The notes below the pieces were generated by a model. It was not told the DNA's origin, did no database searches, and worked only from the letters and a program-made list of their open reading frames with translations. Below, piece after piece: positions 14,950 to 63,102 of a stretch of DNA of 64,000 bases. Every line of letters starts with the position of its first letter. The stretch's first letter is position 1. The DNA comes from an uncultured virus (IMG/VR IMGVR_UViG_3300044731_002104) (taxonomy: Duplodnaviria > Heunggongvirae > Uroviricota > Caudoviricetes), in IMG/VR virus record IMGVR_UViG_3300044731_002104. One strand, 5' to 3'. Position numbers and translations under genes: made by a program.

Positions 14950-15416
14950 GCCTTCTTGCCTTTCAAGCCAAAGAAGGCGGGGCCCGACCATTGCGTGCCC
15001 GTGATCAGCTTGGCAATGGCCGACAAGCTTTTGTATTGATGGCCGTCGTATTCATAGCCGCCATCGGCCAGCACCGTGACTTTGTATTTCTTGCCGTCAA
15101 ATTCACGCAAGAGCGTGGTGCCTGGCAGCACTGTCCGGGTGGATGGAGCGGCGGTCTTGATTTTCGAAAAGCGGGCGCCGTAGTCGGCCAGCATGTCGCG
15201 GGTGCCGGTGGGCAGCGCACCATAGGCCTGCTCTTGCAGCTTGTAGCCCAAGCGTGACTCGATGTGCGTGCGATTGGGCCGGGCAGGCCTGCGCACAAAG
15301 AATTGATCCCACAGCGCCCAAAGCTCGGGCATTTTCATGTTCGAGAGCGCGTGGAGTTTTTCGGAGATTTCGCTGGTGCGCAGGATGTCGCGCATCGGCG
15401 GGGCGGTGTTTTTCAA
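14946..15416 (-). CDS. DUF2924-family protein
   Basis: PGTTLLREFDG...YKSLSAIAKLITGTQWSGPAFFGL; usual partner of such recombinases. Confidence 0.85.
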   Translation of the reverse strand: MKNTAPPMRDILRTSEISEKLHALSNMKMPELWALWDQFFVRRPARPNRTHIESRLGYKLQEQAYGALPTGTRDMLADYGARFSKIKTAAPSTRTVLPGTTLLREFDGKKYKVTVLADGGYEYDGHQYKSLSAIAKLITGTQWSGPAFFGLKGKKA

Positions 15417-47046: not shown

Positions 47047-50000
47047 GCACACAGAGCACTTCTCTGATCATTGGTGCCGGTGGCGGTGGAAAGGGTGGGG
47101 GCGGCAGCGCACGTGTGGCGCAGGAAGCGCCCGACAGCCTGCGCTCCAAGGCCTATGCCAGGGTGGTTGACCTCGTCTGCGAGGGTGAGATTGAGGGCTT
47201 GGCCGCAAACCTGCAATCCGTCTACCTGGACGACACCCCTATCCAGAATCCGGACGGCAGCTACAACTTCACGGGGGTAACGCTCGAAACCCGCCCTGGC
47301 ACCCAGCAGCAAAGCTACATCCCCGGCTTCTCCGCTGTGGAAAACGAAGTGGCTGTTGGGGTGGAGTGCAAGGCCAATCAGCCGGTGGTGCGCTCCATCA
47401 CTGATCCTGACGTGGATGCCGTGCGCATCAAGGTCAGTATCCCGTCGCTCACGCTGCAAGACACCACCAACGGTGACCTGAACGGCACTTCGGTCAGCTA
47501 CGCGATCGACGTGCAGGCGCGGGGAGCCGGGTATGTGCAGGTGGTTACCGACACGGTCTCTGGCAAAACCACTTCGCGCTACCAGCGCAGCTACTACGTC
47601 CCACTCATTGGCGCTGGTCCTTGGGATGTGCGCCTGCGCCGCATCACGGCCGACTCGACACAGACCAGCCTGCAGAACAAAACGCTTCTAGATTCGTACA
47701 CCGAGGTGATCGAAAGCAAGCTGCGCTATCCCAACAGCGCCCTGATGGCCTTGCGGGTGGATGCCTCGCAGTTCACTTCGATTCCACGGCGCAGCTATGA
47801 CCTCAAGCTCCTTCGCGTTCGCATCCCCTCGAACTACTCACCCGAGACCCGTGCGTACAGCGGGATCTGGGACGGTACTTTCAAGGTGGCTTGGACAGAT
47901 AACCCGGCCTGGTGCTTTTATGACCTGGTAACCAATACCCGCTACGGGCTGGGTAGTTTCATACCGGAGTCCCAGGTCGACAAATGGGCGCTGTACCGGG
48001 TGGCCCGTTACTGTGACGAACTCGTGCCCGATGGTCTGGGTGGCTATGAGCCGCGATTTACCTGCAACCTGTATCTGCAAAGCCGCGAGCAGGCCTACAA
48101 GGTGGTGCAGGATATGGCCTCGATCTTCAGGGGCATGGCTTACTGGTCGGGCGGGGCAATCACTGTCACTCAGGATGCGCCCCAGGATCCGGTCTACCAG
48201 TTCACCGCAGCCAATGTCATCGATGGTGAGTTCGCCTACCAGGGGTCATCCGCCAAGGCGCGGCACACGGTTGCTTTGGTCAGCTGGGTGGATCCGGGTG
48301 ATTTCTACCGCCAGAAGGTGGAATACGTCGAAGACATGGCAGGCATTGCCCGCTATGGCGTGGTTCAGGCCGATGTGGTGGCCATGGGCTGCACTTCCCG
48401 GGGCCAGGCCAACCGGGTGGGCAATTGGCTGCTGTATTCCGAGCAGTCCGAATCGGAAATCATCACATTCCGCACGGGACTGGAAGGCGCTGTTGTGCGC
48501 CCCGGCGATGTCATCAAGGTGGCAGACAGCAGTCGGGGTGGCCTACGCCTGGGTGGGCGCATCACGGGGGCAACCACGATAAGCGTCACGCTGGATCAGG
48601 ATTTGCCCGCCGGTTCATGGCGCATCTCTGTGCTGCTGCCCACGGGAGTGGTGGAGGAGCGCCAAGTCGGATCCCTGTCTGGCCGAACGGTCGGTGTGAC
48701 AAGCGCATTCTCTTTAGCACCTCAGGTGGGTGCCATCTGGGTGCTGGCCTCCAGTCAAGTGGAGACGCAACTGTTCAGGGCGGTGCAGGTCGCCGAGAGC
48801 GAGCCAGGCATCCATGAAGTCACGGCACTGGCTCACAATCCGAGCAAGTACGACGCCATCGAGCGTGGGCTGGCACTGCAGCCTCGTGATATCACGGTGC
48901 TCTCCACCACACCTGTGGCGCCTACGGGCCTGTTGATCACCGAGAGCCTGTACCGGGTCAAGGATCAGGCGCTGGTGCTCATTCAGTTGGGATGGGAGCA
49001 GGTCTTCGGCGGCCTGGAGTATCAGGTGAGCTATCGGGTCAATGGCGGCAACACCGTCACCTTGCCCCGGATTTCGAGCACTTATCTGGAGATTCGAAAC
49101 GCCGAGGCCGGGGATTATGTTTTCACGGTTCGGGCTGTGGGGGTGTCCGGCAAGCTTGGGGGCTCGGCCTCATTGAGCCAGACCATCCTTGGCAAACTGC
49201 AGCCGCCCGATGACGTGCAGGACTTTGTGGTGCTGCGCCGCACGACCGATCTGCTGCTGAGTTGGAGCGCCAACACGGATGCCGATCTGGCAGGGTACGA
49301 GGTGAGGGTGGGCGCGGGCTGGGATGCGGGAACTCTGGTTGGGCAGACCGCTGGTACCCAGCTCGTCCATGACCAAAGTGAATCAGGTCGGTACAACTAC
49401 TTCATCCGGGCCTTTGACACCTCTGGCAAGTACAGCCAGCATGTCGCCACCTTCGAGTTGCTCCTGCTGGCACCAGCCGCAGTGCGGCAGTTTGATGTGG
49501 TCCAGTCGGCCAACCGGCTGGAGTTTCGTTGGCTGCCCAATCCTGAGCCGGAGGTGGTGGCCTATGAGCTGCGAGAAGGCACGGCGTGGGACACTTCGAT
49601 CTTCATTGCCGAGGTCAAGTCCAGCAGCTTCACTTTGCCTTCAGGCTTTGACGGTGAGCGTAATTTCTGGATCAAGGCAATCGCCTCGCCAGGCATCTAC
49701 TCGGACGAGGCCACCTTCGTCTCGACGGTGGTGGCCCAGCCCCAGAACGCCAACCTGCTGGTCACCATCGATGCACAGGCCACCCGGTTTCCAGGGGTGA
49801 AGCATTTCGCATCGGTCGAGTCGGTCAACAGCCTGGATGTGCTGCGCATGGACAGTGGCGTTGCGCAGTCCGAGTACCTGTTCGAGGTGAATCTGCCCAC
49901 CAGCTACCGGGCGCAAAACACCCTGTTGGCCAGCATCGGGGCCACACTGGATGATCGAGAAACCTGGTCGACAGCGAACTATGTCTGGAGCAGCAATGCT

Positions 50001-50552
50001 GCCAAACGGCAATGGAACTATGACGGCGCGCTCAAAAGCATCGAAGCGAGGTTTCAGATGGCGCGCGAAGATGCATTGCAGGCCGGAGAGCTCTACGGCT
50101 GGCGCCTCAATGGTGCGCTGGCAGGGTACGGCAGTCCTGCCAGTGGGGAGGCCGTGGGCGTCAGCTATGGCGACGGGCGGTACGGCAGTGGGGTACTCAT
50201 CAAGGACACGACCCGGGTTTCCTGGGGTGTGAGCATCCCCGGGGTGTTCCATGTGAGCTTTTGGTTCATCCCGAATCAGATCACCACCTCGGTCATCTGG
50301 ACAGCATCTGGTGCAGGGGTGAGCCTGCTTGTGGGCTTCGATGCGGCGGCAGGCAGCTTCTTTCTGGAAGACCACCTGTTCAACCGAATCGTCGTGCCAT
50401 ACCCCGTGAGCGTCAGCGACCGGATTTGCGTTGGTGTATGTCAGACGGCCGCTGAACGCAGGCTCTTTGTCGGAAAGATGGGCGGCGATGTGCAAAGCGC
50501 AAGCAGTCCTTTGCAACCCACTGCCGGATACACGGTCCTCAAGCTGTATTGA
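47043..50552 (+). CDS. Host-specificity/central tail fibre gpJ-like with Fn3-like repeats
   Basis: EGEIEG, WTDNPAW, EPRFTCN. Confidence 0.92.
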   Translation: MSTQSTSLIIGAGGGGKGGGGSARVAQEAPDSLRSKAYARVVDLVCEGEIEGLAANLQSVYLDDTPIQNPDGSYNFTGVTLETRPGTQQQSYIPGFSAVENEVAVGVECKANQPVVRSITDPDVDAVRIKVSIPSLTLQDTTNGDLNGTSVSYAIDVQARGAGYVQVVTDTVSGKTTSRYQRSYYVPLIGAGPWDVRLRRITADSTQTSLQNKTLLDSYTEVIESKLRYPNSALMALRVDASQFTSIPRRSYDLKLLRVRIPSNYSPETRAYSGIWDGTFKVAWTDNPAWCFYDLVTNTRYGLGSFIPESQVDKWALYRVARYCDELVPDGLGGYEPRFTCNLYLQSREQAYKVVQDMASIFRGMAYWSGGAITVTQDAPQDPVYQFTAANVIDGEFAYQGSSAKARHTVALVSWVDPGDFYRQKVEYVEDMAGIARYGVVQADVVAMGCTSRGQANRVGNWLLYSEQSESEIITFRTGLEGAVVRPGDVIKVADSSRGGLRLGGRITGATTISVTLDQDLPAGSWRISVLLPTGVVEERQVGSLSGRTVGVTSAFSLAPQVGAIWVLASSQVETQLFRAVQVAESEPGIHEVTALAHNPSKYDAIERGLALQPRDITVLSTTPVAPTGLLITESLYRVKDQALVLIQLGWEQVFGGLEYQVSYRVNGGNTVTLPRISSTYLEIRNAEAGDYVFTVRAVGVSGKLGGSASLSQTILGKLQPPDDVQDFVVLRRTTDLLLSWSANTDADLAGYEVRVGAGWDAGTLVGQTAGTQLVHDQSESGRYNYFIRAFDTSGKYSQHVATFELLLLAPAAVRQFDVVQSANRLEFRWLPNPEPEVVAYELREGTAWDTSIFIAEVKSSSFTLPSGFDGERNFWIKAIASPGIYSDEATFVSTVVAQPQNANLLVTIDAQATRFPGVKHFASVESVNSLDVLRMDSGVAQSEYLFEVNLPTSYRAQNTLLASIGATLDDRETWSTANYVWSSNAAKRQWNYDGALKSIEARFQMAREDALQAGELYGWRLNGALAGYGSPASGEAVGVSYGDGRYGSGVLIKDTTRVSWGVSIPGVFHVSFWFIPNQITTSVIWTASGAGVSLLVGFDAAAGSFFLEDHLFNRIVVPYPVSVSDRICVGVCQTAAERRLFVGKMGGDVQSASSPLQPTAGYTVLKLY

Positions 50553-50630
50553 ACGTAAACCCAGAACCCCAACCTGGGCGTTGCATCGAATGGTGCAGCG
50601 CCCGTTTTGTTTGAAGAAACGGAAAACTCC

Positions 50631-51077
50631 ATGATTGAAGAAGGCATGAGCATCAAAGGCTCAATCACGCTGCTGCTGGCCAAGCCCACGGGCGAAGTCG
50701 AGGTGGTGCACAAGGACAACATCATCGTCAATGGCGGCTTTGACTTCGTGGCCGATGCCATCGGCAATTCGGCCAGCCGCCCTGGTGTTATGGGTTGGAT
50801 TGCGGTGGGCACTGGCTCCACGGCCGCTGCCGCCACTCAGACGGCCCTGGTCACCGAAATCAAGCGCAATGCGGCCACGTATGCCCACACGGCTGGCACC
50901 AAGGTGTTCACTTTCACGGCCAGCTATCCGGCGGGTGACGCCACAGGTGCGCTCACCGAGGCGGGCGTGTTCAATGCAGCCTCGGCTGGCGCCATGTTCG
51001 ATCGGGTCGTTTTCCCGGTGGTGAACAAAGGCGTGGACGACAGCCTGACGGCTGTTTTCACCTTCACCATGAGCTGA
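50631..51077 (+). CDS. Phage tail protein
   Basis: N.IV..G, IAVGTG, TEAG.FN. Confidence 0.75.
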   Translation: MIEEGMSIKGSITLLLAKPTGEVEVVHKDNIIVNGGFDFVADAIGNSASRPGVMGWIAVGTGSTAAAATQTALVTEIKRNAATYAHTAGTKVFTFTASYPAGDATGALTEAGVFNAASAGAMFDRVVFPVVNKGVDDSLTAVFTFTMS

Positions 51078-51090
51078 TCGGGCACCTGAT

Positions 51091-52281
51091 ATGGCCGAGA
51101 CCGTCAACGTCTCCAGCTCGCCGGGGGCCAACTACACCTGGACTTCCGGCAAGTTTTCCTGGGGCAGCGCTACGGCAGGCAAGAACTGGACAACGGCCTA
51201 CCCGGCGGTCTACGCCCTGACCGTGGCCACTGACCTGAGTTTTGCCGAGTTGGTTCAGAAATTGGGCATTAAGAGCAATTCCGAGAGCCTGACCTTCTCG
51301 GATAAATCCAGCCGGGCTTTGGCACTCAACAAGTACGAGAACCTGAACTTTGTCGAGACCTACACCGACCTGATTGCCTTTGTGCTGCGTTTCGTTGAGT
51401 CCCTGACGTTCACGGAAAAGTACGCTCGCACGGGCACCAAAGCCGTCTTCGAGACGTTTCAGGTGGGGGAGGGACTGGCACGGCAGTTGGTATTGCGCAA
51501 ATACGAGACGCTGGCGCTGGCTGAGACCTATACGGACCTCATTGCGTTCATCCTGCGGGTATCCGAGAGCCTGAGTTTTTCCGAGAAGCCTTCCAAAGGG
51601 ATGACCAAGCCACAGGCTGAAAACTTCAGGCTGAGCGATGCACTGGTCAAGTCGCAGGTCAAGCAAATCTCCGAGGCCTTCAGTCTGGCCGAGGCGCTCG
51701 GTCGAACGGTCGCGTACCGCCGTGCCATCAGCGAAGGCTTTGCCATTGGCGAGGCGATAAGGCGTGCGCAGACCTTGAAGCTCAGCGAGGCCTTTGGTCT
51801 GGCCGAGCAGTATCGGCGCCGGGCCAATGGGGTGATCAGCGACATGATCGTTGCCAACACCGAGATCACCGAGCAGGACTTCATGGACATCCTGGAGTCT
51901 GGTCATCCACCCGGTTACACCAACTTCCGGGACTTCATCCAGGGCGACTACACCTACCAGCGTGCGCTTTTTAGGGCGATCTTGACTTCCAGCAACGCAG
52001 ACCGAGGCTACATCGATGGCCTGCGGGTGACTGTGGACGTGCCCGATGTATTCGATCGAGGCACGGCGCAGGTGGTCACCGCGTCCAGTGGCGTAGCGGT
52101 CGTTTTTGTGCGGACTTTTCGGGTCTCGCCGGAGGTCACGCTGACCTTCAAGGGCGGTACCACCGTGGCCATTCCTCGAATTCTTGGAACGGTCACCACC
52201 GCAGGCTTCACCGCCGTTTTGGAAAACACCTCTGGCGCCCGCGTGACGGGAGCCATTTCTTGGGTTGCCCAGGGGTATTGA
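51091..52281 (+). CDS. Tail protein with internal repeats
   Basis: Duplicated KYE....ETYTDLIAF.LR..ESL.F.EK; H-type-lectin-like C-terminus. Confidence 0.7.
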   Translation: MAETVNVSSSPGANYTWTSGKFSWGSATAGKNWTTAYPAVYALTVATDLSFAELVQKLGIKSNSESLTFSDKSSRALALNKYENLNFVETYTDLIAFVLRFVESLTFTEKYARTGTKAVFETFQVGEGLARQLVLRKYETLALAETYTDLIAFILRVSESLSFSEKPSKGMTKPQAENFRLSDALVKSQVKQISEAFSLAEALGRTVAYRRAISEGFAIGEAIRRAQTLKLSEAFGLAEQYRRRANGVISDMIVANTEITEQDFMDILESGHPPGYTNFRDFIQGDYTYQRALFRAILTSSNADRGYIDGLRVTVDVPDVFDRGTAQVVTASSGVAVVFVRTFRVSPEVTLTFKGGTTVAIPRILGTVTTAGFTAVLENTSGARVTGAISWVAQGY

Positions 52282-52292: not shown

Positions 52293-53303
52293 ATGCAAAA
52301 CTACACCGAAATCCCGTCCAGCACGACGCTCTCGGACTCGCTGTCGCAGATCCTGAACAACGACAAGACGGCGCTCTCGCTCTCCAGCGGAACGGCGTTT
52401 CCGACTGTGAATCTGCAGCAGGGTATGCCGTGTTTCAGGACTGATGAGCAAAAGCTCTACATCCTCACCGTGGTCAGTCCCGTCACGTGGAAGATGGTCA
52501 TCGACCTCTCGGCCACAGTGGGCAAAGTGGCCAATGCGGATCTGCTGGATGGCATCGACTCCACCGGCTTTGCACTGAGTGGGCACAACCACGATGCCGC
52601 ATATGCAGCGCTGGGCCACAACCACAACGCGGCATACCTGGGCATCACGGCCAAGGCAGCGGACGCTGACAAGCTCGATGGCTATGACTCCACGGCCTTT
52701 GTGCGCTCAGTCAATGGCAACGCACCGGATGCCTCTGGTAATGCCACCGTACCGATCGATTTGTCCAGTCGATTGGCCAAGGCCGGTGACACGATGACAG
52801 GCCATCTGTACATGGGTACTGGCGCAGTGATTTACTCGTCTCAGTCTGGTGCGGCGGACAACGCTCGCAACACTGGCTATCGCATGAACGATGGACAGGA
52901 CATTGGCGAGATGGGGCGCAGCAACCAGTATTACGACGATCTGGCTGCTAACTGCAATGGCATCTTGCCGACCGGCAACTGCGCAGGCAATACGTACTGG
53001 AAACCCTCCAATACCAGCTGGTGGACCTGGGGCCTGGGGTTCAACTACTGCGCCAACTCGGCCCAATACGACGGTGCGGGGGGAACGACCTACGCCTATA
53101 ACGCCGTGCCCAGCACAGGCTACAACTACGACGGTTACTACCTGGCCCAAGACGAGATTGGTGGTGGCGAGTACCACCGCTGGTACCGAGCCTGCAATTG
53201 CAACTGCAACTGTGGCAGCTACACCAACTGCAACTGCGGCAACACCGCCTTCAATTGCCGAACAAACTGCAATTGCAACTGTGCCTGCTGCGGTTGCTGC
53301 TGA
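52293..53303 (+). CDS. Tail-fibre-like protein with Cys/Asn-rich C-terminus
   Basis: Fibre motifs ADLLDG, HNH, ADKLDG, VRSVNG, GDTMTG; C-terminus CNCNCNCGSYTNCNCGNTAFNCRTNCNCNCACCGCC. Confidence 0.8.
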   Translation: MQNYTEIPSSTTLSDSLSQILNNDKTALSLSSGTAFPTVNLQQGMPCFRTDEQKLYILTVVSPVTWKMVIDLSATVGKVANADLLDGIDSTGFALSGHNHDAAYAALGHNHNAAYLGITAKAADADKLDGYDSTAFVRSVNGNAPDASGNATVPIDLSSRLAKAGDTMTGHLYMGTGAVIYSSQSGAADNARNTGYRMNDGQDIGEMGRSNQYYDDLAANCNGILPTGNCAGNTYWKPSNTSWWTWGLGFNYCANSAQYDGAGGTTYAYNAVPSTGYNYDGYYLAQDEIGGGEYHRWYRACNCNCNCGSYTNCNCGNTAFNCRTNCNCNCACCGCC

Positions 53304-53312
53304 AGGATCATC

Positions 53313-54119
53313 ATGAAAGTCTTTCTTGTGCGCGCGGGCAAGCTCTCGACTGCGCTGGATTACGCCATTCATCTCAAAGTGGACCAAGCGGCTGAGCAGG
53401 TACTCATGCGCTTTGGCTTGCGACACCGTCCAGATAGTGATCAGCCTTCTGACTTCTCTGTGGAGGGGGTGACTTACCAGGTGGTTGCCGAGCAGGTGTT
53501 TGCCTATCGTGAGCTGAGAAACAACCGTGGGTGGTCCGACCGACAGTCCTTTATGACCGGTTACCGCTGGGCAGAAAAACGGCTCATCGACCCGTTGCCC
53601 TTGTATGTCTACACCCTGTCTACGCGTTTCACAGCGCCAGAAGTCTCGGGGCATGTCTGGAACGGGAACTTCCTGACCGGATTTAACGTGCCCTTTGCGG
53701 ACAGCAGCTTTGATGAATGCTTCGTGACGGTGAACCTTCATCCCACGCTTGGAGGATGTCTGGTTGAAGGTGTGGCTTCCATGGATGTGGAGCACACCGA
53801 TTACCAGTCATCTGCTCAGGTAAGGGAAATGGAGTTCCCAGACTTGCGGGTGATTGCCCCCGCAAATGTCATAGCGGGGGATCCAGCCGAATTCACTGTG
53901 CAGATGCTCGACGGCCTGGGCAATCCCAGCAACCGTGATGCAGAGATTCACTTTGAGTCGGTCAATGGTTATCTGCCCGTCAGCCGACGCCGAACGCAGG
54001 GCGGGATGACCACAGCCACCGTCATGACCTTGGGGCTTCAAGCTGGCGACACCGTCCGATTGAAAGCGGGCTTCAAGTTCTACCCCGGCTGCGCCGATGC
54101 TCAGGTGGTCCTTTCATGA
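53313..54119 (+). CDS. Hypothetical protein (possible C-terminal Ig-like domain)
   Basis: 268-aa ORF 9 nt after the fibre gene; ATGA overlap with next gene. Confidence 0.7.
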   Translation: MKVFLVRAGKLSTALDYAIHLKVDQAAEQVLMRFGLRHRPDSDQPSDFSVEGVTYQVVAEQVFAYRELRNNRGWSDRQSFMTGYRWAEKRLIDPLPLYVYTLSTRFTAPEVSGHVWNGNFLTGFNVPFADSSFDECFVTVNLHPTLGGCLVEGVASMDVEHTDYQSSAQVREMEFPDLRVIAPANVIAGDPAEFTVQMLDGLGNPSNRDAEIHFESVNGYLPVSRRRTQGGMTTATVMTLGLQAGDTVRLKAGFKFYPGCADAQVVLS

Positions 54120-54715
54120 TTCGCGAACTGTTTTCTGCTCGGGTCTACCAAGGACAACTGAGTTTTGAGGATGGCTTGCGTGATCAGATGCTCAAAAGGG
54201 CAATGGATTTACATCAGCGGCTCAATCGAGATGGGCAGCCCTGGGCACGCAAAAGCCGTCAGTCCCTGATCGATCATGAAAGCTGCTGTGACGTTTTCAG
54301 ACCCCTGGTAAACCAGGTTCGTGAAGTCATTGGGCACGCCTACCAGTGTGAACCCGTGTGGCAATCCGCCCGAGAGGTCATCACCCAACCTGGTCAGTTC
54401 ATTCCGCTGCATGCCGAAGACACCGATCTCTCGGCGGTGTATTGGATTGACGGAAATGCTCGGCCAGATCCTTCTCGCCAGGACTACTCCGGCGCTTTTG
54501 TGCTGGTCAATCCCAGCGGTGCTTACGGCAGCCGCAAATTGCCCTGGGAAGGCTGGCGCTCGGAAATCATCCATCCGTACCCCGGCCTGCTGGTGATTTT
54601 CCCGAGCTACCTGGCGCACCATTCCCACCCCTACAACGGTACCCGGCCGAGTGTGGAAGTCCATTTTGAGTTCCGGGTTCAGGCATTGGAGGGACAAGCC
54701 CATGCAAATCGTTGA
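54116..54715 (+). CDS. 2OG-Fe(II) oxygenase-like protein
   Basis: PLHAE...LSAVYW...LVIFPSYL.H..P...R. Confidence 0.75.
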   Translation: MIRELFSARVYQGQLSFEDGLRDQMLKRAMDLHQRLNRDGQPWARKSRQSLIDHESCCDVFRPLVNQVREVIGHAYQCEPVWQSAREVITQPGQFIPLHAEDTDLSAVYWIDGNARPDPSRQDYSGAFVLVNPSGAYGSRKLPWEGWRSEIIHPYPGLLVIFPSYLAHHSHPYNGTRPSVEVHFEFRVQALEGQAHANR

Positions 54716-55280
54716 CGGTTTGATTGAGCCCGAGTTGACCGCTGAATGCCGCCAGTGGCTGTTGAGCCAGAACCTTGTGTTTGGCTGGAAAGCGCATGCC
54801 AAGGCCCCTGGGGTGTTTTGGCACCGAAATTTTGTGCTGCCAGGAAAGCACAACCACCACTATGACGCAGGTGCATGGCAGCCAGAACATACTTTTGATG
54901 CGTTTGTGGCCCAGGGGGGACCACTGGTCCGAGTGGCCCTTCAGGTCAAAGAGCAGTTCTTTCCCAACGCAGAGATCACGCGCCTGTGGGTCAATGTGCA
55001 AGCGTTCGGAGATGAGGCTTCGCTCCACAGGGACTTCCCAACTGAGTTTCAGGACACGGCAAGATCCGTGATCTGGTATCCGGTAGCCGAGTGGAGTGCG
55101 GATTGGGGAGGGGATTTGGTGATGTTGGACGATCTGGGTGAAATTCAGGCGGCAGTCATGGTCAAACCCAATCGGATGGTGCAGATCAATGGCTGCATGC
55201 GCCATGCTGCCCGCCCGATCTCCCGTTATTGCAACGCCTTGCGTATCGCGGTGGCGTTTGGTTCAGAGGTGGCACCATGA
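54702..55280 (+). CDS. 2OG-Fe(II) oxygenase (prolyl-hydroxylase-like)
   Basis: HRD, WGGDL, KPNR, RHAA, RIAVAF. Confidence 0.82.
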   Translation: MQIVDGLIEPELTAECRQWLLSQNLVFGWKAHAKAPGVFWHRNFVLPGKHNHHYDAGAWQPEHTFDAFVAQGGPLVRVALQVKEQFFPNAEITRLWVNVQAFGDEASLHRDFPTEFQDTARSVIWYPVAEWSADWGGDLVMLDDLGEIQAAVMVKPNRMVQINGCMRHAARPISRYCNALRIAVAFGSEVAP

Positions 55281-55960
55281 TTGAATACCTCTGGCCAACG
55301 CCAGTGCTCAAGGACACGGCGCCTTGGACTCCATCTGAAATGGATGAACTTCGGCGCTACACGGTCGAAAGATTTCATGATCATCAGACCCATCCACCCG
55401 TGCACGGCTTGCCTGATGTGGATGTCCGGCTGAGGGTCCAGCTCAATCTGTTTCATGCCCATCATGAGGCTCATGCACCGGCAGTTTGGCATCCATGGAA
55501 GCTCTGGGTGGAGAGTACTTACCGCAACTACCTGCTCGAAGCACACGGGGTGCGCAATGCACAGGATCTAAAAATCGAAGCTCGTTGCATCCCCGTGCAT
55601 TACCAGCCAGGTATGCGGGCTCAGCCGCACTACCACCACACCTGTGACCATGTCCTGTGTCTGTACCTGGACTGCGGGCAAGGCCGAAGTCCACCGGACC
55701 AACGCAGCTGGACCGTCGGTGACGGTGAACTTATCTTGCAGGACCCCCGTCCGATGGCGGGGTTTCCATTTTGGGAGAAGGTTCGCTACATCGAAACCTT
55801 TCCCGGTCTGGTGGTACTGCATCCATCGCGCATCTGGCATGAAACCAACCCCTTCAATGCCCAGGGTGAGCGAACCCTTCTGGTGGTGACCCTTCGGGTC
55901 GCCTCTCACAACTACAGCGATCTGTACACCGAGCTCAGAGGAGGGGCGTCGTGTCTTTGA
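55277..55960 (+). CDS. 2OG-Fe(II) oxygenase-like protein
   Basis: PHYH, LYL, GELILQDPR, PS..WH...P...R. Confidence 0.78.
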   Translation: MIEYLWPTPVLKDTAPWTPSEMDELRRYTVERFHDHQTHPPVHGLPDVDVRLRVQLNLFHAHHEAHAPAVWHPWKLWVESTYRNYLLEAHGVRNAQDLKIEARCIPVHYQPGMRAQPHYHHTCDHVLCLYLDCGQGRSPPDQRSWTVGDGELILQDPRPMAGFPFWEKVRYIETFPGLVVLHPSRIWHETNPFNAQGERTLLVVTLRVASHNYSDLYTELRGGASCL

Positions 55961-56160
55961 ATTCACATACCCGTCCAGGTTTCGAGGTGGATGTGGTCCG
56001 TGTGGACGACAGCAACCTGCGCATGACTGTGTTGGTCACCAATCCCGACGGCAAAGCTTCTGGCCGTCATGTCTTCAACATTCAAACGATGCCGGGTGCT
56101 GATCCGGCACAGGTTTGCCGAGAGGCATACCCCATCGCATTCGAGGAATCATTGTCATGA
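55951..56160 (+). CDS. Small hypothetical protein coupled to radical SAM gene
   Basis: 69 aa, GGAGG RBS, ATGA overlap with rSAM start. Confidence 0.6.
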   Translation: MSLNSHTRPGFEVDVVRVDDSNLRMTVLVTNPDGKASGRHVFNIQTMPGADPAQVCREAYPIAFEESLS

Positions 56161-57578
56161 AATTCACACTCACCCTCAATGGCAAAAACGAGTTTGAGCG
56201 ACAGGCCGTCTACAACCCAGAAGACTCCAGTCTGGTCTGGAAAGACAGTGGGGAGCCTTTGCCATTGCCACAGGCATTTGCTCGCCAGGAGGGCATGCAG
56301 TGGCAGCCTTTTTGGCATTTGCATCACCCCTCCAATCCGGCCGGAAAATCAAGGGCCATTCGCCACCTCAAGCTGCAGCTGGGGCTCAAATGCAATTACG
56401 CCTGCCAATACTGCTCACAGGCACACCAGCCTCATGACCTTGACGGGCACCCGGACGATGTCCAGCCTTTCATGCAGCAACTCGAGGGGTGGTTTGCTGG
56501 AGGAGAGGATGGCCGAGGTGCTGGCGTCAAGATCGAGTTTTGGGGTGGAGAACCCTTTGTTTACTGGAAATTGCTCAAGCCCCTGGGTGAGGAGGTCAAA
56601 CGTCGCTATCCCAATGCTCAGTTGTCGATCGTGACGAACGGATCGCTATTCGATGACGAAAAACTGGCTTGGGTGGAAGCGCTGGATATCGGGATTGGCT
56701 TGTCCCATGACGGACCTGCCCAGTCATACCGTGGCCCGGATCCATTGGCTGATCCTGAAAAGCTTGTCCAGATCAAGCGCTGGGTATCCAGGCGCATGCC
56801 GCTTGATCGGATGAGCTTCAACACGGTTTTGCACCGGCACAACCAATCCCTCAAGGCGGTTCGGCAGTATTTCGCTGAAAAGCTCGATCTGCCAGTGCAG
56901 GCCATTGTGCTGGCCACCGAGGAAGTGATGCTGCCCTATGACCAAGGAGGTCTCTCGCTGACGCTGGAAGGTGCTGATCTTGATCGATACCGCCACCAGA
57001 TGTTCTGGGAACTGGTGACAGGTGCTGGCATGTCGGTGGGTACGATGCGAGACAAAGTCGACGAATTCATGCGAGCGCAGGCACAGTCCAGGCCGCTGAA
57101 CTCTTTGGGCCAAAAGTGCGGCATGGACCGTGATGACTCGATTGCCGTAGACATGAAAGGCAATGTGACGACCTGCCAGAACATGAGCGCCTCGACCCGT
57201 CACAGGATCGGCCACGTTGAACAATTTGACGACATAGCGCTGAATACGGCGTACCACTTCAGCACCCGAATCGAATGCCCGCGTTGTCCCGTGGTGCAAC
57301 TTTGCAAAGGGGCCTGTTTGTTTCTGGAAGACGGTTACTGGCGCGCTGCCTGCGACAACTCGTTTTCGCACAACCTGGCGGTCATGGCCGCAGCGCTGTA
57401 CTACCAGACGCAAGGGCTGATCCTGACCCGGATTGAGGCTGATGCTATTCGTTCGTCACGACAGAACGTGATTGACGTCATCTGTCTTGCGTTTGTGGAG
57501 TCTGGTGGAGACATGCAGACCGTGGTTCCTGTCCTGCAGCTCCGAAAAGCGTTTCCGATTGCGGTCGTTGCCGCATAG
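56157..57578 (+). CDS. Radical SAM/SPASM-domain enzyme
   Basis: CNYACQYC (CX3CX2C), WGGEP, TNG, SHDG; SPASM KCG...C...CPRC.....CKGAC...C. Confidence 0.9.
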   Translation: MKFTLTLNGKNEFERQAVYNPEDSSLVWKDSGEPLPLPQAFARQEGMQWQPFWHLHHPSNPAGKSRAIRHLKLQLGLKCNYACQYCSQAHQPHDLDGHPDDVQPFMQQLEGWFAGGEDGRGAGVKIEFWGGEPFVYWKLLKPLGEEVKRRYPNAQLSIVTNGSLFDDEKLAWVEALDIGIGLSHDGPAQSYRGPDPLADPEKLVQIKRWVSRRMPLDRMSFNTVLHRHNQSLKAVRQYFAEKLDLPVQAIVLATEEVMLPYDQGGLSLTLEGADLDRYRHQMFWELVTGAGMSVGTMRDKVDEFMRAQAQSRPLNSLGQKCGMDRDDSIAVDMKGNVTTCQNMSASTRHRIGHVEQFDDIALNTAYHFSTRIECPRCPVVQLCKGACLFLEDGYWRAACDNSFSHNLAVMAAALYYQTQGLILTRIEADAIRSSRQNVIDVICLAFVESGGDMQTVVPVLQLRKAFPIAVVAA

Positions 57579-57623: not shown

Positions 57624-57657
57624 GGCCGCCATGGTTTTCCCTGGCGGCTTTTCTTTT
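57624..57657 (+). terminator. Rho-independent terminator between rSAM and lysis cassette
   Basis: GGCCGCCA...TGGCGGCT followed by TTTCTTTT. Confidence 0.7.
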
Positions 57658-57667
57658 GGAGTTACGA

Positions 57668-58051
57668 ATGCCAGAACCGACAAGCAGTGGGGTCGCCGGA
57701 GCGGCGGTCGCCTATAAAGCATTGGGAGGTTCCGCAGCTGCTGCAGCCAGTGGCGCCACCTTGGCAGCTGTGGTGGTCATGTTGATGACGCCGCCTCGCA
57801 ACAAACGCGAGTGGGCTGTTGGGCTGATCAGCACCGTGGTGTCGAGCATCGGCGGTGGTGCCATCACCGTCGAACACTTTGGACTGCATCACTGGGCTTT
57901 TTCAACCATGGGGCTTTGCGCCTTGGGTGGGTTGATCTTTGCGTGTGGACTGCCTGGGTGGGCGATGGTGCGATGGACGTTTGCTTTCATCGATAAGCGC
58001 CGTGACGATTCCATCGACCAGGTGGCCAAGGATGTGAAGGAGCTGCTGTGA
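57668..58051 (+). CDS. Putative holin
   Basis: Multiple TM segments, charged C-terminus, precedes endolysin. Confidence 0.75.
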   Translation: MPEPTSSGVAGAAVAYKALGGSAAAAASGATLAAVVVMLMTPPRNKREWAVGLISTVVSSIGGGAITVEHFGLHHWAFSTMGLCALGGLIFACGLPGWAMVRWTFAFIDKRRDDSIDQVAKDVKELL

Positions 58052-58512
58052 GACCTTCAGAGTTCATCATGCGGCTGTCAAAGCCAGCGATGGAGTCCCA
58101 GCGAAAGTCAGGGGTTCCTGCCAGCATCACGATCGCTCAGGCGGCACTTGAGTCCGCCTGGGGTGAATCAGGCCTTGCAAAAGCTGGGAACAACCTCTTT
58201 GGTATCAAGGCCGATAGCCTGTGGCAGGGTGAAACGCTGACCTTAAACACACGCGAGTTCATCAGAGGGCAATGGCTTGTTATTCCAGCCAAATGGCGAA
58301 AGTACAGCAGTTGGCAGGCCAGCATTGATGATCATGCCGCTTTTCTCAAAGGCAATCCACGCTATCAGCGCTGTTTCATGTGTCAGACCACTGAGGATTT
58401 TGCTCGTGCGCTGCTCAAGGCAGGGTATGCGACCGATCCTTCCTATACCGAAAAGCTGCTCGGATTAATTTTCCAACACAAGCTCCAGGCTTTGGATCAG
58501 GAATCGAAATGA
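58048..58512 (+). CDS. GH73 glucosaminidase endolysin
   Basis: AQAALES.WG, NNLFGIK, GYATDP.Y. Confidence 0.9.
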   Translation: MRPSEFIMRLSKPAMESQRKSGVPASITIAQAALESAWGESGLAKAGNNLFGIKADSLWQGETLTLNTREFIRGQWLVIPAKWRKYSSWQASIDDHAAFLKGNPRYQRCFMCQTTEDFARALLKAGYATDPSYTEKLLGLIFQHKLQALDQESK

Positions 58513-59018
58513 ACTGGCTCACTCGTCTATTGATTTCCAACTGGACCCTGGTCATCGTCCCCATTGTGATGCTTGGCGTCTGGCTCAATGGTGTGTGGGT
58601 GGGGGAGGGGCGTACTCAACGGGCGTGGGATGCCGAACGGCATCAGGTAGCGCTTGTTCAAGCACGGTCTGAACAAAAGTCGGCAGACATTAAACGCTCA
58701 CAGGAGCAAATCAACCATGAAATCTCAAATGAGTTCAAGCGAAAATCTGCGCGCTTGGCTGCCAATTGGCAGTCTGGTCGTCCTGTCGGGGTGTGCAGCA
58801 ACCCCCCAGATGGTGCCGAGCATTTGCCCACCGTTTCCGCAACTTCCACCAACGTTGCTGAAGCCGCCACCGACCCTTTACCTTCTGCCTCCGCAGATGA
58901 GAGACGGCTGACCTGTGACAAGCTCTATGAGGATTCAGCACAGACTACGTTGATGTTGGTTGAAATTCAGAAGTGGTACGTCGAACATTCAAAGTTGCTC
59001 TTGACTGTAGCTAGGTAA
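58509..59018 (+). CDS. Rz-like i-spanin
   Basis: N-terminal TM, coiled coil, follows endolysin. Confidence 0.75.
   Translation: MNWLTRLLISNWTLVIVPIVMLGVWLNGVWVGEGRTQRAWDAERHQVALVQARSEQKSADIKRSQEQINHEISNEFKRKSARLAANWQSGRPVGVCSNPPDGAEHLPTVSATSTNVAEAATDPLPSASADERRLTCDKLYEDSAQTTLMLVEIQKWYVEHSKLLLTVAR
58717..58911 (+). CDS. Rz1-like o-spanin lipoprotein embedded in Rz (+1 frame)
   Basis: CAGGAG RBS, ATG 58717, lipobox LSGC, Pro-rich mature part. Confidence 0.75.
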   Translation: MKSQMSSSENLRAWLPIGSLVVLSGCAATPQMVPSICPPFPQLPPTLLKPPPTLYLLPPQMRDG

Positions 59019-60132
59019 TTGCTGAAGTTCTCCGAAGCCAAAACTCAGATTTTGGCCAGCGTGCTTGGTCTTGATACCAGCTGGCCCGGTTGTTCAAATA
59101 CGTCTGCCAAATGTTTGCCAGTGCGTTGCTGTATTCATCGATACAAGGCTGAAAATGATCCGTGCTGAGCGCATCATGAATCGATGTTGATGCAGCCAGA
59201 CCTGTGTACAGCGCATTGAATATGCCTTGGGATGAGAGCGGATCAAAACACATGGCCGCGTCTCCGGTGGCCAGCCAGCGGTGTCCGGCGTATTGAGGCA
59301 GCGTGGCGCTGTTGGCTGAGCAAAAGCCGTGTTTGGCGGCTATGTCAGAAAAGTCTGTTGTCAATATTGTTTGCGCCAGGTCTGGCAGCTGCTGTGCACG
59401 CCTTAGCAACGCGTTGGGCTTGTGTGCATCTTTGGCAGAAGGCTGATCTGCATCGGTATAGAAGGCCAGCAACCTTTGTTGATTGGGAAGAACCGACGTA
59501 TACCACCAGCCATCTCTTTCGGCATGGATTTCACTTTCCTGCTCTGCGTTGGAGAGGTGACGGCCAATCATCCAGCCACAGGCAAGCTTGTCTTTGGCTT
59601 GCGGTATCAACCCCATTTGTTTGGCGAAGAATGATTTTCGGCCAGTGGCATCAACCAACCAATTGGCTTTGATGTGAATGCGCTGTCCATCGACTTCGGT
59701 TTCCACAAGCCATGATTGATCGGTGGGGTCCAGATTTCCAAAACTCAATCCCGAACACCTCAGAATTCCAGCGCCTCGTCGATGAGCTTGCTGCAGCAGC
59801 CACTCATCAAATCGAGCGCGGTCCAGATGCCAGCCATCGCCGTCCAGGTTGCGAACCGAGTCATTGAAGTAAGGTTCAGCACTGCCCCATAGTGACTTGC
59901 TCAAGCGATGGGGTTGATGGTCTTGTTCAAGAAACGAAGACCACAGCCCCATGTCTTTAAGTAAACGTGATGCAGCAGCCGGCAATGACTCCCCAACTGC
60001 TTGTGACGTGACACTCTGCTGCGTGACGATCAAAACCTTGTGAAAAGTTGCCAGATTAAGCGCCACCGTACTGCCTGCGGGGCCAGCCCCCACCACCAAA
60101 ACATCGACAAAGAGCTGGTCCCGCACAGGCAC
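59011..60132 (-). CDS. FAD-dependent LodB/GoxB-type flavoprotein
   Basis: GAGPAG, DATGR, GDAA..FDPLSSQG; abuts LodA-like gene. Confidence 0.85.
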   Translation of the reverse strand: MPVRDQLFVDVLVVGAGPAGSTVALNLATFHKVLIVTQQSVTSQAVGESLPAAASRLLKDMGLWSSFLEQDHQPHRLSKSLWGSAEPYFNDSVRNLDGDGWHLDRARFDEWLLQQAHRRGAGILRCSGLSFGNLDPTDQSWLVETEVDGQRIHIKANWLVDATGRKSFFAKQMGLIPQAKDKLACGWMIGRHLSNAEQESEIHAERDGWWYTSVLPNQQRLLAFYTDADQPSAKDAHKPNALLRRAQQLPDLAQTILTTDFSDIAAKHGFCSANSATLPQYAGHRWLATGDAAMCFDPLSSQGIFNALYTGLAASTSIHDALSTDHFQPCIDEYSNALANIWQTYLNNRASWYQDQARWPKSEFWLRRTSAIT

Positions 60133-63102
60133 TTACAAACCACGAGGGAAGCGACGCACTTTCTCAATCGTCATCAGATCAACAGAGTCAGGGCGAGTTT
60201 CACCAGCTGCGCCCAGCTTTGCATCGTCATGATGTTTGCGCGGTGCATGTCCATCACTCAAGATAGGACGGTGTTCGTCCTCTACCTGAATCACAGCAGG
60301 GAAATTTGCTCGGTCTGCTGGGCCTTCGCGCACTTCAACCACACCCATGTGGTCAAAGTGATGAATCATGTTGTTGATCTGATCCGTGTACGAACTGTCA
60401 CCCAGCGGAGCGGTCCAAGCCGCGCGATTGGCGAATGCCATCATGCGCTCTCCGAGCGACTTGCTGGTGTCCATCACGATGTCGTAGTTTTGCTTGGTCA
60501 GAACCTGGTTGGGCACACGTGCGGGCCAGAAGCTGGGCACATAAGGGTCATACGCTTTGTCGTAGCCCGAGCGGCAGCTGGCGGTGTCTGTTTGCCACGG
60601 CACGGCCATCCATCGGGTGATGCCGCCCGCCTGCTGACCGCTGAAAGGTCCGTTGGGAATCGTGATCCAGTCACTGCTCAAAACCTCGCCAATAGACGGG
60701 GCAACCCAGCCCTTGGGTGCATGCGCAAACCTGAACGGTCCCATGTACATGGTTTTGATGCGTACAGGCCATGTCATCTCGCACCCCGGGTGAAACGCAT
60801 CGGCCAAACAGAAGTCCAGAGCTGCGCGTGTCAGTGTGTCGCCTTGCGCTGCAAGTGGCACGTCTTCAATGGACTTGGGCGTCACTTGCTCAGGATCGTA
60901 GTCTTCAATGAAATCACCATTCGCCCATTGCTGCAGGAAAGCGAGCTGCGTTGCAGTCAATGACGTGTTCTGCAGGGGAGTATGGGCCGCGGGTACCGAC
61001 ATGGCGTCGCCATACAGCCATGGCCAAGGCTTGGGAGACCACGAGTCCACGTTGTCGTTGCGGAACTGATTTGCAATGGTTTTGCGTAGCTCCCTGAAGG
61101 CTGGGGACGCGCTGGACAGTCTGGCTACCACTTCCGGGCTGGTCAAATCATTTGCACCCCTCCAGCCAAAGCCGGCAGCAAAGCCACTGTTGACCCACTG
61201 CAAACCATGAAGCCGCTGGAACAGCGGGTAAATGTCCAAAGTAAAGCTTGGACGTGTGGGCATGGGCAGCATCCCGTTGGTGATGGCTACATCACGCATC
61301 AAGTCCCACATCGTGCGCACAGTTTTCAACTCAGGACCGTAGTTGGGTGGCGCCACCACCACCCAAGCAGGATCAACCATCAGTTGCAAGCCTTGGTATT
61401 TCACGCTTGCTGTCACCGGGCCGTCGGACACATCGTCATGCCAGCCTTCGTTGTTGCCAAACGTGATGGCTTTGCTGTTGTTGTAAGAAGACGAATGGCC
61501 GTGGCCGCCCAAAACAATCAGACGCCCGTTTTCGTCTGTGTGAATTTCACCCAGGTACACCGGCTTACCCATGAACTGGCCATCGTCAAAGCGCTTGGCT
61601 TTGGCGTTCTTGCCTTTCACCTTGTGTGGGTTGGGGGTGATGCTCAGCATGTTTCTGTCTGGGACACCCGGATTGCGCAAAGTGGTCGGTGGTGCAGAAG
61701 CCGCCTCCGGAATGTCCAACGCCAGCTGAAACCCGTACCAAGCTGACTTTTGGTTGGCCAGTTGAACATCCCACTCGATGTCAGCGTTGTCTGCAGTCAG
61801 CTCTCGCACGATCTCGCCCTTGGCATTGAGTCCGTAAATGCGGAACCTGGCGGCCTGCCGTTTGAGGCGATGATGTGCGTCCCGGTAAGAGCCTGGCGGA
61901 AAGGGGGCCGGGTCTGGCACCTCTGGCCCCAGAAACCATTCATCAGGACTGTTGCCTACACGCGCCACCCCAATAGACGGGTAGATGGCCGCTTTCACAA
62001 TGCAGGTGTCGACGGGTCCATACATTTGAATGGCGGGTTCGGCCGTGGCCTCCTGTACTTGATGGAAAGGACATGCCGATGCAGCTGGCCTCGGTTCTGT
62101 GGGGTCTTGCAAGGGCTGGCCATTGGCTTCGTGCCTCAAGCGTGCGCCTTCGCGGTAGACCATTTTGCGAGCCACGGCAATCGAGCCCACTGGCGCTTGC
62201 TCTGGCGGCACACGCCAGATGTTGAAGCTCAAGCCTTGTCCGTATTCCGACTGGCCACGCAAAGTGATGTCTTGCCTGGGCAGTGTGAGTGTGGCCACAT
62301 GCACAAACGGACTTTCTGTCTCGGGCCATTCCACTGTGGCCTGATCCAACGGCATGGTTTCGGGATTGGTTCGCAACTGAACCATGAACTTGAACTGATA
62401 GCCGTCATGGGACAAGCGATTGCACATATCCACCGCCAGGTAGTCGGCCTGATCATTGGGCACGTTCTCGGGTGGTGTAACTGGATCGAGACGGTATTTG
62501 ACGTATTGCTTCTCGCCTGCCATGAAAGGCAGGATGGCCCAATAGGTTGTGGTGAGCACACTGCCTTCGACCTTGGCCATGCGATCCAGAATCGCAGCGG
62601 TTTTGGGGTGCTTTTTCAGGTAGCTGGGGTAGTCTTTTTGCACCACACCGGCATAGGTAAACTCGGTCATCTCTTGGGCGTTGTCCACAAAGAAGACCGG
62701 AAAGTTCTGCATGATGAAGTCGGCCGTATCGCCATCATCACCCAGTGCTTTGACACCCGGGACGCCAAAAAGTTTGATGCCAACCCCAAGCGTGGACTTC
62801 AAGTCCGGCGATGTGGGCGTTGTGTCACTCGAAAAACGCACCCATGCTTGCAAGCGCTCATGCGTGAAGATGCCGACCTTCAGAGCCTCGGGAATGTTTG
62901 GTTGTAGCACCCATTCGGCACTGGCTACACCATGCAGCTTGCGGAACACCGCCCGTTCGGCAGGTCGCTGGCCCAGTTGAATGCGACGGTCTTGCGCAAC
63001 GCCGACGAACATTTCGGTCAGCCGCTCAGGAGCTTCTTCCGGATTATCAAAGCAAGGGGGAATAGGGTATTGCATACATGAACCTTTTGGATATGGGTAC
63101 AT
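60133..63102 (-). CDS. LodA/GoxA-family CTQ oxidase with N-terminal catalase-like domain
   Basis: IYPSIGVARVGNS, KRQAARFRIY, FHPGCEMTW (Cys), MAVPWQTD (Trp); N-terminal FRKLHG...RFS...DF..QN.PVFF. Confidence 0.88.
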   Translation of the reverse strand: MYPYPKGSCMQYPIPPCFDNPEEAPERLTEMFVGVAQDRRIQLGQRPAERAVFRKLHGVASAEWVLQPNIPEALKVGIFTHERLQAWVRFSSDTTPTSPDLKSTLGVGIKLFGVPGVKALGDDGDTADFIMQNFPVFFVDNAQEMTEFTYAGVVQKDYPSYLKKHPKTAAILDRMAKVEGSVLTTTYWAILPFMAGEKQYVKYRLDPVTPPENVPNDQADYLAVDMCNRLSHDGYQFKFMVQLRTNPETMPLDQATVEWPETESPFVHVATLTLPRQDITLRGQSEYGQGLSFNIWRVPPEQAPVGSIAVARKMVYREGARLRHEANGQPLQDPTEPRPAASACPFHQVQEATAEPAIQMYGPVDTCIVKAAIYPSIGVARVGNSPDEWFLGPEVPDPAPFPPGSYRDAHHRLKRQAARFRIYGLNAKGEIVRELTADNADIEWDVQLANQKSAWYGFQLALDIPEAASAPPTTLRNPGVPDRNMLSITPNPHKVKGKNAKAKRFDDGQFMGKPVYLGEIHTDENGRLIVLGGHGHSSSYNNSKAITFGNNEGWHDDVSDGPVTASVKYQGLQLMVDPAWVVVAPPNYGPELKTVRTMWDLMRDVAITNGMLPMPTRPSFTLDIYPLFQRLHGLQWVNSGFAAGFGWRGANDLTSPEVVARLSSASPAFRELRKTIANQFRNDNVDSWSPKPWPWLYGDAMSVPAAHTPLQNTSLTATQLAFLQQWANGDFIEDYDPEQVTPKSIEDVPLAAQGDTLTRAALDFCLADAFHPGCEMTWPVRIKTMYMGPFRFAHAPKGWVAPSIGEVLSSDWITIPNGPFSGQQAGGITRWMAVPWQTDTASCRSGYDKAYDPYVPSFWPARVPNQVLTKQNYDIVMDTSKSLGERMMAFANRAAWTAPLGDSSYTDQINNMIHHFDHMGVVEVREGPADRANFPAVIQVEDEHRPILSDGHAPRKHHDDAKLGAAGETRPDSVDLMTIEKVRRFPRGL

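Follow-up and report, generated by a model that had tools for sequence, protein, structure and literature searches.

Which molecule is modified by a radical S-adenosylmethionine (SAM) enzyme whose gene is embedded in the tail operon of a phage? This question is raised by a 64,000-nt stretch of DNA from an uncultured virus of the Caudoviricetes (IMG/VR record IMGVR_UViG_3300044731_002104), called the window in the following. At positions 52293–57578 the window encodes a tail-fibre protein with a Cys-rich end and, behind it, six more genes, among them three for 2-oxoglutarate (2OG)-Fe(II) oxygenases and one for a radical SAM/SPASM enzyme. A previous sequence-only reading of this DNA proposed that the phage crosslinks or hydroxylates the tip of its own virion fibre, or releases a modified peptide from it. 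Comparison with related loci shows that the link between fibre and radical SAM enzyme is far beyond chance in both directions. We consider it rather likely that the fibre tip undergoes a maturation resembling that of peptides made by the ribosome and modified after translation (RiPPs). The phage radical SAM enzyme would act on an Asn-Cys ladder at the fibre C-terminus, and most likely it would install thioether cross-links.

The Asn-Cys ladder at the fibre C-terminus

The genes are found where the sequence-only reading had placed them (Table 1). Six genes follow the fibre gene on the same strand, the first of them starts 9 nt downstream at 53313, and ATGA overlaps are present at 54116, 55277 and 56157. 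The assignment of the first gene as a tail fibre is based on its location after the central fibre gene J and on its N-terminus, which shares 37% identity with gp028, the fibre of Achromobacter phage JWF; matches to PHROG fibre families are weak (E 4e-3). The fibre ends in ...RACNCNCNCGSYTNCNCGNTAFNCRTNCNCNCACCGCC*, with 14 Cys among the final 37 residues, mostly alternating with Asn. At the DNA level the ladder is no clean microsatellite, and the only period that Tandem Repeats Finder detects is a weak one of 6 nt (67% matches). An AlphaFold2 model of the fibre head and tail has a mean predicted local distance difference test score (pLDDT) of 33.3 and is unusable.

The ladder joins directly onto the conserved head module and no leader-like spacer is found between them. 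Head module and ladder are conserved beneath unrelated shafts, including collagen-like ones. In relatives, collagen repeats are found on the ladder protein itself, or S74-domain fibres are encoded before it, and ladders also occur on small proteins of 94–133 aa downstream of S74-bearing fibres. Among 100 distinct tails, Asn precedes the first ladder Cys in 91, and the x residues between the Cys are N (57%), A (17%), D (14%) and K (7%). Cys is the sole invariant ladder residue.

Most ladders lie at the very end of the protein. In 81 of these tails the ladder ends within 10 residues of the C-terminus, while 15 tails have 100–220 residues after the ladder. Where such longer tails were checked, the extra residues are a self-cleaving Hint or S74 domain starting at the ladder end. 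In JWF gp028, Hom_end_hint (3e-12, residues 308–344) comes right after the ladder at 298–308. In locus L029, PF13884 (S74, 2e-11) starts at residue 132 behind a ladder at 82–130, and in loci L056–L068 Hint matches under the Pfam cut-offs are located right after the ladder. The fibre of the window has neither domain and ends at a stop codon after the ladder. Judged from these domain boundaries, the ladder is predicted to form the free C-terminus once the fibre is mature, in all three designs (stop codon, Hint, S74).

In the Rhodospirillales prophages L056–L068 and in L001 (JWF gp028), the final ladder Cys is also residue 1 of the Hint domain. Therefore, self-cleavage or thioester transfer would fall exactly at the ladder end.

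Reciprocal association of ladder and enzyme

A profile scan of IMG/VR gives at least 572 relatives of the radical SAM enzyme, and 182 relatives are found in species-representative genomes. A first set was formed by 30 IMG/VR loci and the best 80 of these 182 genome relatives. In each locus with at least 3 kb of upstream sequence, a ladder was counted when an upstream open reading frame (ORF) on the same strand had at least 90 aa and contained (C-x)3C. The radical SAM ORF is present in 111 sources, 84 of which have the required upstream length, and 78 of the 84 hold a ladder ORF at a distance of 0.6–6.6 kb. By chance the motif is rare: the other six-frame ORFs, about 10,240 in number, gave only 3 hits. 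Six loci are misses, namely RSP15, L074, L098, L020, L072 and L100, of which L074 and L098 have ladders narrowly below the rule. A second scan added 47 new distinct loci. Here 37 of the 39 with at least 3 kb upstream carry the ladder, and the two others end in ...ANCNCNCSNC and ...ACNCAGGACDCG. Across both scans, four misses carry shorter Cys-x-Cys tails (L074, L098, L171 and L177), and the majority of the misses come close to the rule. Radical SAM cassettes occurring independently of Cys-rich fibres, which the sequence-only reading had named as the observation that would speak against it, are thus not what these counts reveal.

The reverse test starts from the ladder. IMG/VR was scanned for the DNA pattern encoding NCNCNCNC with no enzyme criterion, giving at least 121 loci. 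Among the matches listed, 38 loci carry an in-frame ladder that lies no more than 10 residues from the C-terminus and have 3 kb or more of sequence downstream. A strong member of the radical SAM family is found in 31 of them, a weaker radical SAM protein in 6 and none in 1. Of the same listed matches, none of the 34 loci with an out-of-frame pattern has the enzyme, nor does any of the 6 loci with enough room in which the pattern is not C-terminal. In several loci (L210, L212, L217, L226 and L242) the radical SAM gene starts 4–8 nt past the ladder gene, and the minimal module therefore consists of two genes.

This pairing spans lambda-like prophages, the siphovirus JWF, contigs of more than 100 kb and the Ackermannviridae phage RSP15. 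The co-occurrence of Cys-repeat fibre ends with modifying enzymes, as anticipated in the sequence-only reading, is borne out for the radical SAM enzyme in both directions and among very distant phages, but not for the 2OG oxygenases, which are accessory and not part of the core.

The radical SAM/SPASM enzyme

The assignment of the last gene as a radical SAM/SPASM enzyme holds. PF04055 scores 30.4 (cut-off 29.5), and all 13 aligned homologues keep the three Cys of the CX3CX2C motif (C79, C83 and C86). The SPASM domain is recognized by TIGR04085 at residues 321–389 with a score of 33.6 (cut-off 27). Its seven-Cys motif for two auxiliary clusters was tested as C-x(9-15)-G-x4-C ... C-x2-C-x5-C-x3-C ... 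C, and the residues C321, G335, C340, C374, C377, C383, C387 and C399 are invariant among the aligned homologues. Its phage family, phrog_1802, is without annotation.

The closest NCBIfam families are all peptide or protein modifiers, namely the nif11 maturase, PapB, QhpD, HxsB, CcpM and the anaerobic sulfatase-maturating enzyme (anSME). The best solved relatives are 8vpo, anSME 4k37 (E 1e-14, positions 79–386) and CteB 5wgg (E 4e-14, positions 56–382). By both comparisons the enzyme falls in the peptide- and protein-modifying SPASM group and not among nucleotide or cofactor enzymes, the placement that would have counted against a fibre substrate. A SPASM domain with seven Cys corresponds to the CteB-like state, in which a site is left open for the thiolate of the substrate. 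The equivalog cut-offs of the thioether maturases are not reached: PapB NF047865 scores 57.8 against 340, SCIFF/CteB TIGR03974 31.9 against 425, CcpM TIGR04068 42.5 against 500 and TIGR04463 23 against 525. From these scores, the enzyme would resemble characterized thioether maturases in function at most and is not a member of their families. The residue after its CX3CX2C motif is Ser, which matches neither of the two reference enzymes in the accessible sections of PMC10288494.

We also predicted the complex of the enzyme with fibre residues 270–336, three 4Fe-4S clusters and SAM. Folded without alignments, the complex reaches a median of 0.32 against a mark of 0.34, with replicate runs of 0.32, 0.63 and 0.01 and controls of 0.00.

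Proposed maturation of the fibre tip

The reciprocal association, the operon coupling and the class of the enzyme, which modifies peptides or proteins, together point to the ladder as the substrate. In the infected cytoplasm, the SPASM radical SAM enzyme would act on the N-C-N-C-x-C... ladder of the fibre. An auxiliary Fe-S cluster would hold the ladder thiolate, a hydrogen would be taken from a neighbouring residue, and a thioether would be formed between the Cys sulfur and the carbon. The links may, for example, follow an NxxC register, with Asn, Asp or Ala as the acceptor. The thioether is our best guess because the SPASM region has seven and not eight Cys, Cys is the only residue that never changes in the ladder, and N-C-N-C contains the NxxC register. 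The product would be a host-recognition fibre whose tip is stapled covalently and does not respond to redox conditions. The Big-like 268-aa protein would act as a tip accessory or as a helper. The three 2OG-Fe(II) oxygenases, probably hydroxylases acquired by this lineage, would be optional tailoring enzymes, since they are dispensable in many lineages.

Several observations weigh against this proposal. The NCBIfam search places the radical SAM enzyme far under the cut-off of every characterized maturase family, and the Pfam and NCBIfam searches reveal no RiPP recognition element (RRE) or PqqD-like domain on the enzyme or on the 69-aa protein. The x residues of the ladder vary (N, A, D, K and others), and the sequence fixes neither the acceptor residue nor the attacked carbon. 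Among the misses in the first set, RSP15 has only two tail Cys (a minimal NCQCGN tail), L020 has its upstream region replaced and L072 has an altered fibre C-terminus, both being without a ladder and apparently rearranged, and L100 has no ladder, although its radical SAM match is itself poor. The loci are related, many of them closely, and some contigs are shared between the scans, so they are not independent samples. The count after clustering at 70% radical SAM identity is therefore the fairer number, and in 29 of these 33 clusters the strict ladder is present. Ferrovibrio-type loci have N-rich ladders and no 2OG oxygenase at all; thus, hydroxylation of Asn cannot be essential. Finally, O2-dependent 2OG enzymes and an O2-labile radical SAM enzyme are encoded in one operon.

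A wider claim can be made only tentatively, and we regard it as possible but doubtful. A ladder of multiple thioethers may lock the extreme tip of the receptor-binding fibre, possibly between its three chains, in many tailed phages, while hydroxylases, desaturase-like enzymes, halogenases or a second radical SAM enzyme may tune stability or host recognition. It would then be the first case in which enzymes modify a virus particle covalently in the manner of RiPPs, with a substrate recognized without a leader or an RRE. The tips of the fibres determine the host range of a phage. A cross-linked tip would, if true, be a new layer of virion biology, and RiPP-type radical chemistry would reach from small peptides to viral structural proteins. 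It would also provide a leaderless pair of enzyme and tag for protein stapling in engineering. The family is present in cultured phages such as JWF and RSP15, which makes it directly testable.

Alternative uses of the ladder and of the enzymes

The Cys of the ladder could be metal ligands instead of thioether donors. The ladder would then be a metal- or Fe-S-binding needle with the ligands along the trimer axis, and the radical SAM enzyme would perform another Cys chemistry, such as the formylglycine formation of anSME, or load the metal, without making thioethers. Alternating Cys would share one face of a beta-strand, and metal is known in tail proteins from the HxH iron sites of T4 gp37 and the Fe-S cluster of lambda gpL. 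In addition, anSME, which acts on Cys or Ser of a folded protein, is the best full-length solved match (4k37), and TIGR03942 aligns to residues 76–387 of the enzyme. However, the TIGR03942 score of 34.8 against a cut-off of 349 does not place the enzyme in the anSME family, it retains seven Cys in the SPASM region whereas anSME has eight for its auxiliary clusters, and the substrate motif C/S-x-P/A-x-R is missing from the fibre tail. A metal site alone would also not need the dedicated radical SAM enzyme that accompanies the ladder in 115 of 123 loci. We therefore regard the metal needle as unlikely.

Much less probable still is the release of a modified peptide, the second option of the sequence-only reading, in which the fibre tail is a RiPP precursor and the Cys-rich peptide is cleaved off as a bacteriocin, signal or lysis factor. 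The set of enzymes does look like RiPP tailoring (a SPASM radical SAM enzyme and oxygenases, with halogenases and a second radical SAM enzyme in relatives), and the block immediately precedes the lysis genes. Yet no protease or exporter was identified among the annotated cassette ORFs, and the ladder sits on a folded head module without any leader-like spacer. Where Hint or S74 cleavage exists it falls after the ladder, which stays on the fibre as its mature C-terminus.

It is hardly credible that the radical SAM enzyme and the oxygenases are auxiliary metabolic or counter-defence enzymes with a non-protein substrate (nucleotide, envelope component or cofactor) that lie beside the fibre genes by chance: fibre–lysis junctions are often moron sites, PHROG lists phrog_81 in the category 'moron, auxiliary metabolic gene' and the viperin family NF038283 matches weakly over the radical SAM core (48.8 bits, cut-off 180), but the reciprocal co-occurrence with C-terminal ladders extends across distant phage types with out-of-frame controls at zero, a seven-Cys SPASM domain is typical of peptide and protein modifiers, and translational coupling ties the genes to the fibre operon.

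Comparison with known systems

Thioether maturation of the fibre tip, the explanation favoured here, has precedents outside phages. According to the accessible text of PMC13692751 (Dieter et al. 2026), SPASM enzymes put thioethers on whole proteins in two pairs, CrpC/CrpA and QhpD/QhpC. CrpC of Methanococcus voltae, a radical SAM enzyme of the SPASM type that holds three [4Fe-4S] clusters, modifies a neighbouring Cys-rich protein rather than a short peptide, and the thioether (ranthionine) links lie near the C-terminus of CrpA, as proposed here for the fibre. In contrast to the phage pair, this is a cellular system of an archaeon, an RRE is predicted for CrpC, and the CrpA motifs (CAGM, CAVD, CPLV) are not alternating ladders; the accessible part of the paper does not mention phages. 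In quinohaemoprotein amine dehydrogenase, the same text describes the radical SAM/SPASM enzyme QhpD, which makes Cys-to-Asp/Glu thioethers within the structural subunit QhpC. TIGR03906 for QhpD is among the best matches of the phage enzyme (4e-14), but the phage enzyme scores 52 against a cut-off of 453 with only the N-terminal core aligned. QhpD also has an RRE and a leader, and its substrate is an enzyme subunit and not a virion fibre.

The other precedents act on peptides. In the streptococcal RaS-RiPP pair NxxcB/NxxcA, NxxcB forms a Cys-Asn beta-thioether in the register N-x-x-C, tolerates Ala, Gln and Asp as acceptors and strictly needs the Cys, as described in the accessible sections of PMC9389541. 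NxxC is contained in the N-C-N-C ladder, where N, A and D are the main x residues. NxxcA, however, is a short peptide with a leader that Gram-positives place under the control of quorum sensing, and the likeness to the phage system drawn here is one of register. The ranthipeptide/SCIFF maturases PapB and CteB are SPASM thioether synthases, and the phage enzyme matches PapB NF047865 at 1e-15, but their substrates are peptides of about 45 aa with leaders and no fibre context. RiPP systems in general have a short leader-bearing precursor, an RRE and a leader protease or exporter, in contrast to a 336-aa fibre with none of these identified among the annotated cassette genes, so the general definition of a RiPP system does not apply here.

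SPASM thioether chemistry itself is known. What would be new is its application to a virion fibre without a recognizable leader or RRE. Full-text searches of the literature brought up no account of phage fibres modified by radical SAM enzymes. The accessible sections of a JWF-related paper (PMC9959647) leave radical SAM unmentioned, and a cyanophage paper (PMC12801897) labels its radical SAM gene, in the part accessible, an 'antibiotic synthesis gene'.

Partner protein, oxygenases and cassette variation

In the core gene order the ladder protein comes first and the radical SAM enzyme last, mostly with a member of the 268-aa family between them. In JWF, J is followed by gp027, the fibre gp028, gp029, the radical SAM enzyme, a terminator and the endolysin, and gp028 carries ...QNCNCDCNCNCSC with the Hint domain immediately after. 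In Ralstonia phage RSP15, a side-fibre protein ending in NCQCGN is followed by a 268-aa homologue, a 277-aa protein and the radical SAM enzyme.

The 268-aa family is found in 77 of 113 sources, mostly straight after the ladder gene. The AlphaFold2 model of the protein has a pLDDT of 70.6, and residues 177–268 are Ig-like. Foldseek and Atlas look-up returned only a generic Ig/Big likeness, with no enzyme fold and no function. As a near-constant partner of the ladder protein it may be a chaperone, a scaffold or a tip accessory.

Three 2OG oxygenase genes are present, as the sequence-only reading stated, but they are not all distinct, since A and C are paralogues of one family. In oxygenase A the iron ligands are H99-x-E101...H168, with H99 kept in 90 and H168 in all 93 of 93 family members, and the pattern H99-x-[H/E/D]101 is found in 86 of the 93 members of the A/C family. 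In oxygenase B, H126-x-D128...H185 and R198 are invariant (23/23), and ATG 54702 is a more likely start than GTG 54651. With the iron triad, R198 of oxygenase B as a basic 2OG-binding residue and Pfam scores at or around the cut-off, all three are predicted members of the 2OG-Fe(II) superfamily with its double-stranded beta-helix domain. Sequence searches of the PDB with the three oxygenases gave nothing significant.

The core is the ladder protein and the radical SAM enzyme, and the oxygenases are optional, with 0 to 3 copies. None is present in JWF and in the Ferrovibrio loci L076, L079, L086, L090, L097 and L102, and three are present in the lineage of the window. The 69-aa protein is confined to the close subfamily, where 37 loci have it. 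It was considered as a conserved RRE-like adaptor and rejected as a core part because of this narrow distribution; it is also unlike the ORFs of about 70 aa that are similarly placed in L028 and L032.

Other lineages have different insertions: a second radical SAM enzyme, two fatty-acid-desaturase-family proteins, two tryptophan-halogenase-family proteins or a CDP-alcohol phosphatidyltransferase. The last is a membrane protein located between the Hint-bearing ladder fibre and the radical SAM enzyme in L058 (6608–7312; PF01066 2e-10) and L065 (6566–7309; 9e-12). The AT-rich viral contigs L028 (5069–6576), L029 (4848–7996) and L032 (5769–7637) have (CK)n or (CN/CA)n ladders, and cassettes of this group include two proteins of the desaturase or halogenase family. 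A second, shorter radical SAM protein of 294–350 aa is encoded directly 5' of the SPASM enzyme in six loci, namely L024 (7001–7885), L052 (6965–7987) and relatives. In L194, L202, L245 and L261, proteins of 67–82 aa ending in ...DDYST[AN]CNCNCNC... are encoded 4–7 kb upstream of a more distant radical SAM enzyme (hidden Markov model scores 118–162). This set is probably a separate subfamily with the same theme.

Prophage context

The window holds a lambda-like prophage with genes for a primase, a ParB-methyltransferase, the terminase, the portal, the protease, the major head protein, the tape measure, gpL/K/I-like tail proteins and J. The large serine recombinase likely marks the left prophage end. 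The G+C content climbs from about 0.51 to about 0.6 around 13–16 kb of the window, and a tRNA-Lys gene is located at 2152–2227, 11 kb to the left of the recombinase.

The fibre module is separated from J by a strong terminator-like hairpin at 50575–50604 (13 pairs, 8 of them G-C, then a T-run). Therefore, the fibre and radical SAM block may be expressed by read-through past this hairpin or be under its own control. In some relatives (L037, L068 and L099) the 396-aa protein before the fibre is fused to J. A terminator before the lysis genes was described in the sequence-only reading, and folding recovers it; a simple terminator scan missed the hairpin, which has a loop of more than 8 nt.

Table 1. 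Positions of the described features in the window, with their strand and assignment.
Feature	Position	Strand	Basis and remarks
Serine integrase	13588–14991	−	Resolvase and Recombinase domains
Central tail fibre / host specificity protein J	47043–50552	+	phrog_31 'central tail fiber J', score 1023; starts the distal tail module
156-aa fibre-associated protein	50607–51077	+	phrog_5417 3e-23; phrog_4176 'tail fiber protein' 5e-14; kept in 38 related loci
396-aa protein before the fibre	51091–52281	+	Homologue of JWF gp027; present in 46 loci
Tail-fibre protein, 336 aa	52293–53303	+	N-terminal shaft, conserved head module of about 130 aa (GDTMTG...W-rich), Asn-Cys ladder tail
Asn-Cys ladder, residues 300–336, 14 Cys	53190–53300	+	Proposed substrate of the radical SAM enzyme
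268-aa all-beta protein with C-terminal Big/Ig-like domain	53313–54119	+	No Pfam, PHROG or NCBIfam match
2OG-Fe(II) oxygenase A (PF13759 type)	54116–54715	+	PF13759 27.7 bits (cut-off 27); phrog_81 1.5e-14
2OG-Fe(II) oxygenase B (PF13640, prolyl-hydroxylase-like)	54702–55280	+	PF13640 26.1 bits (just under 27); weak match to FlmC family NF052475
2OG-Fe(II) oxygenase C (PF13759 type)	55277–55960	+	PF13759 27.0 bits (cut-off 27); phrog_81 6e-12
69-aa protein, role unassigned, lineage-specific	55951–56160	+	GTG start at 55951 behind GGAGG; no family match
Radical SAM/SPASM enzyme, 473 aa	56157–57578	+	PF04055, TIGR04085, phrog_1802 5e-53; proposed ladder-modifying enzyme
Intrinsic terminator ending the block	57624–57658	+	Hairpin 57624–57649, then UUUUCUUUU (U-run); −23.1 kcal/mol, z −2.95
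Lysis genes: holin-like, glucosaminidase endolysin, spanin-like	57668–59018	+	phrog_1024; PF01832 2e-38; phrog_6197 (weak)

The closest genome relatives of the radical SAM enzyme are from a Hylemonella metagenome-assembled genome (96% identity) and Limnohabitans (86%), which makes a freshwater species of the Burkholderiales the probable host. Right after the lysis genes, the minus strand at 59011–63102 encodes a 989-aa LodA-family protein (LodA_N 2e-85, LodA_C 3e-40) with an N-terminal extension of about 370 aa. It is adjoined by a 373-aa FAD/Trp-halogenase-like flavoprotein, which is LodB-like by position. The pair may be prophage cargo, since both proteins match PHROGs (phrog_30760 and phrog_29573).

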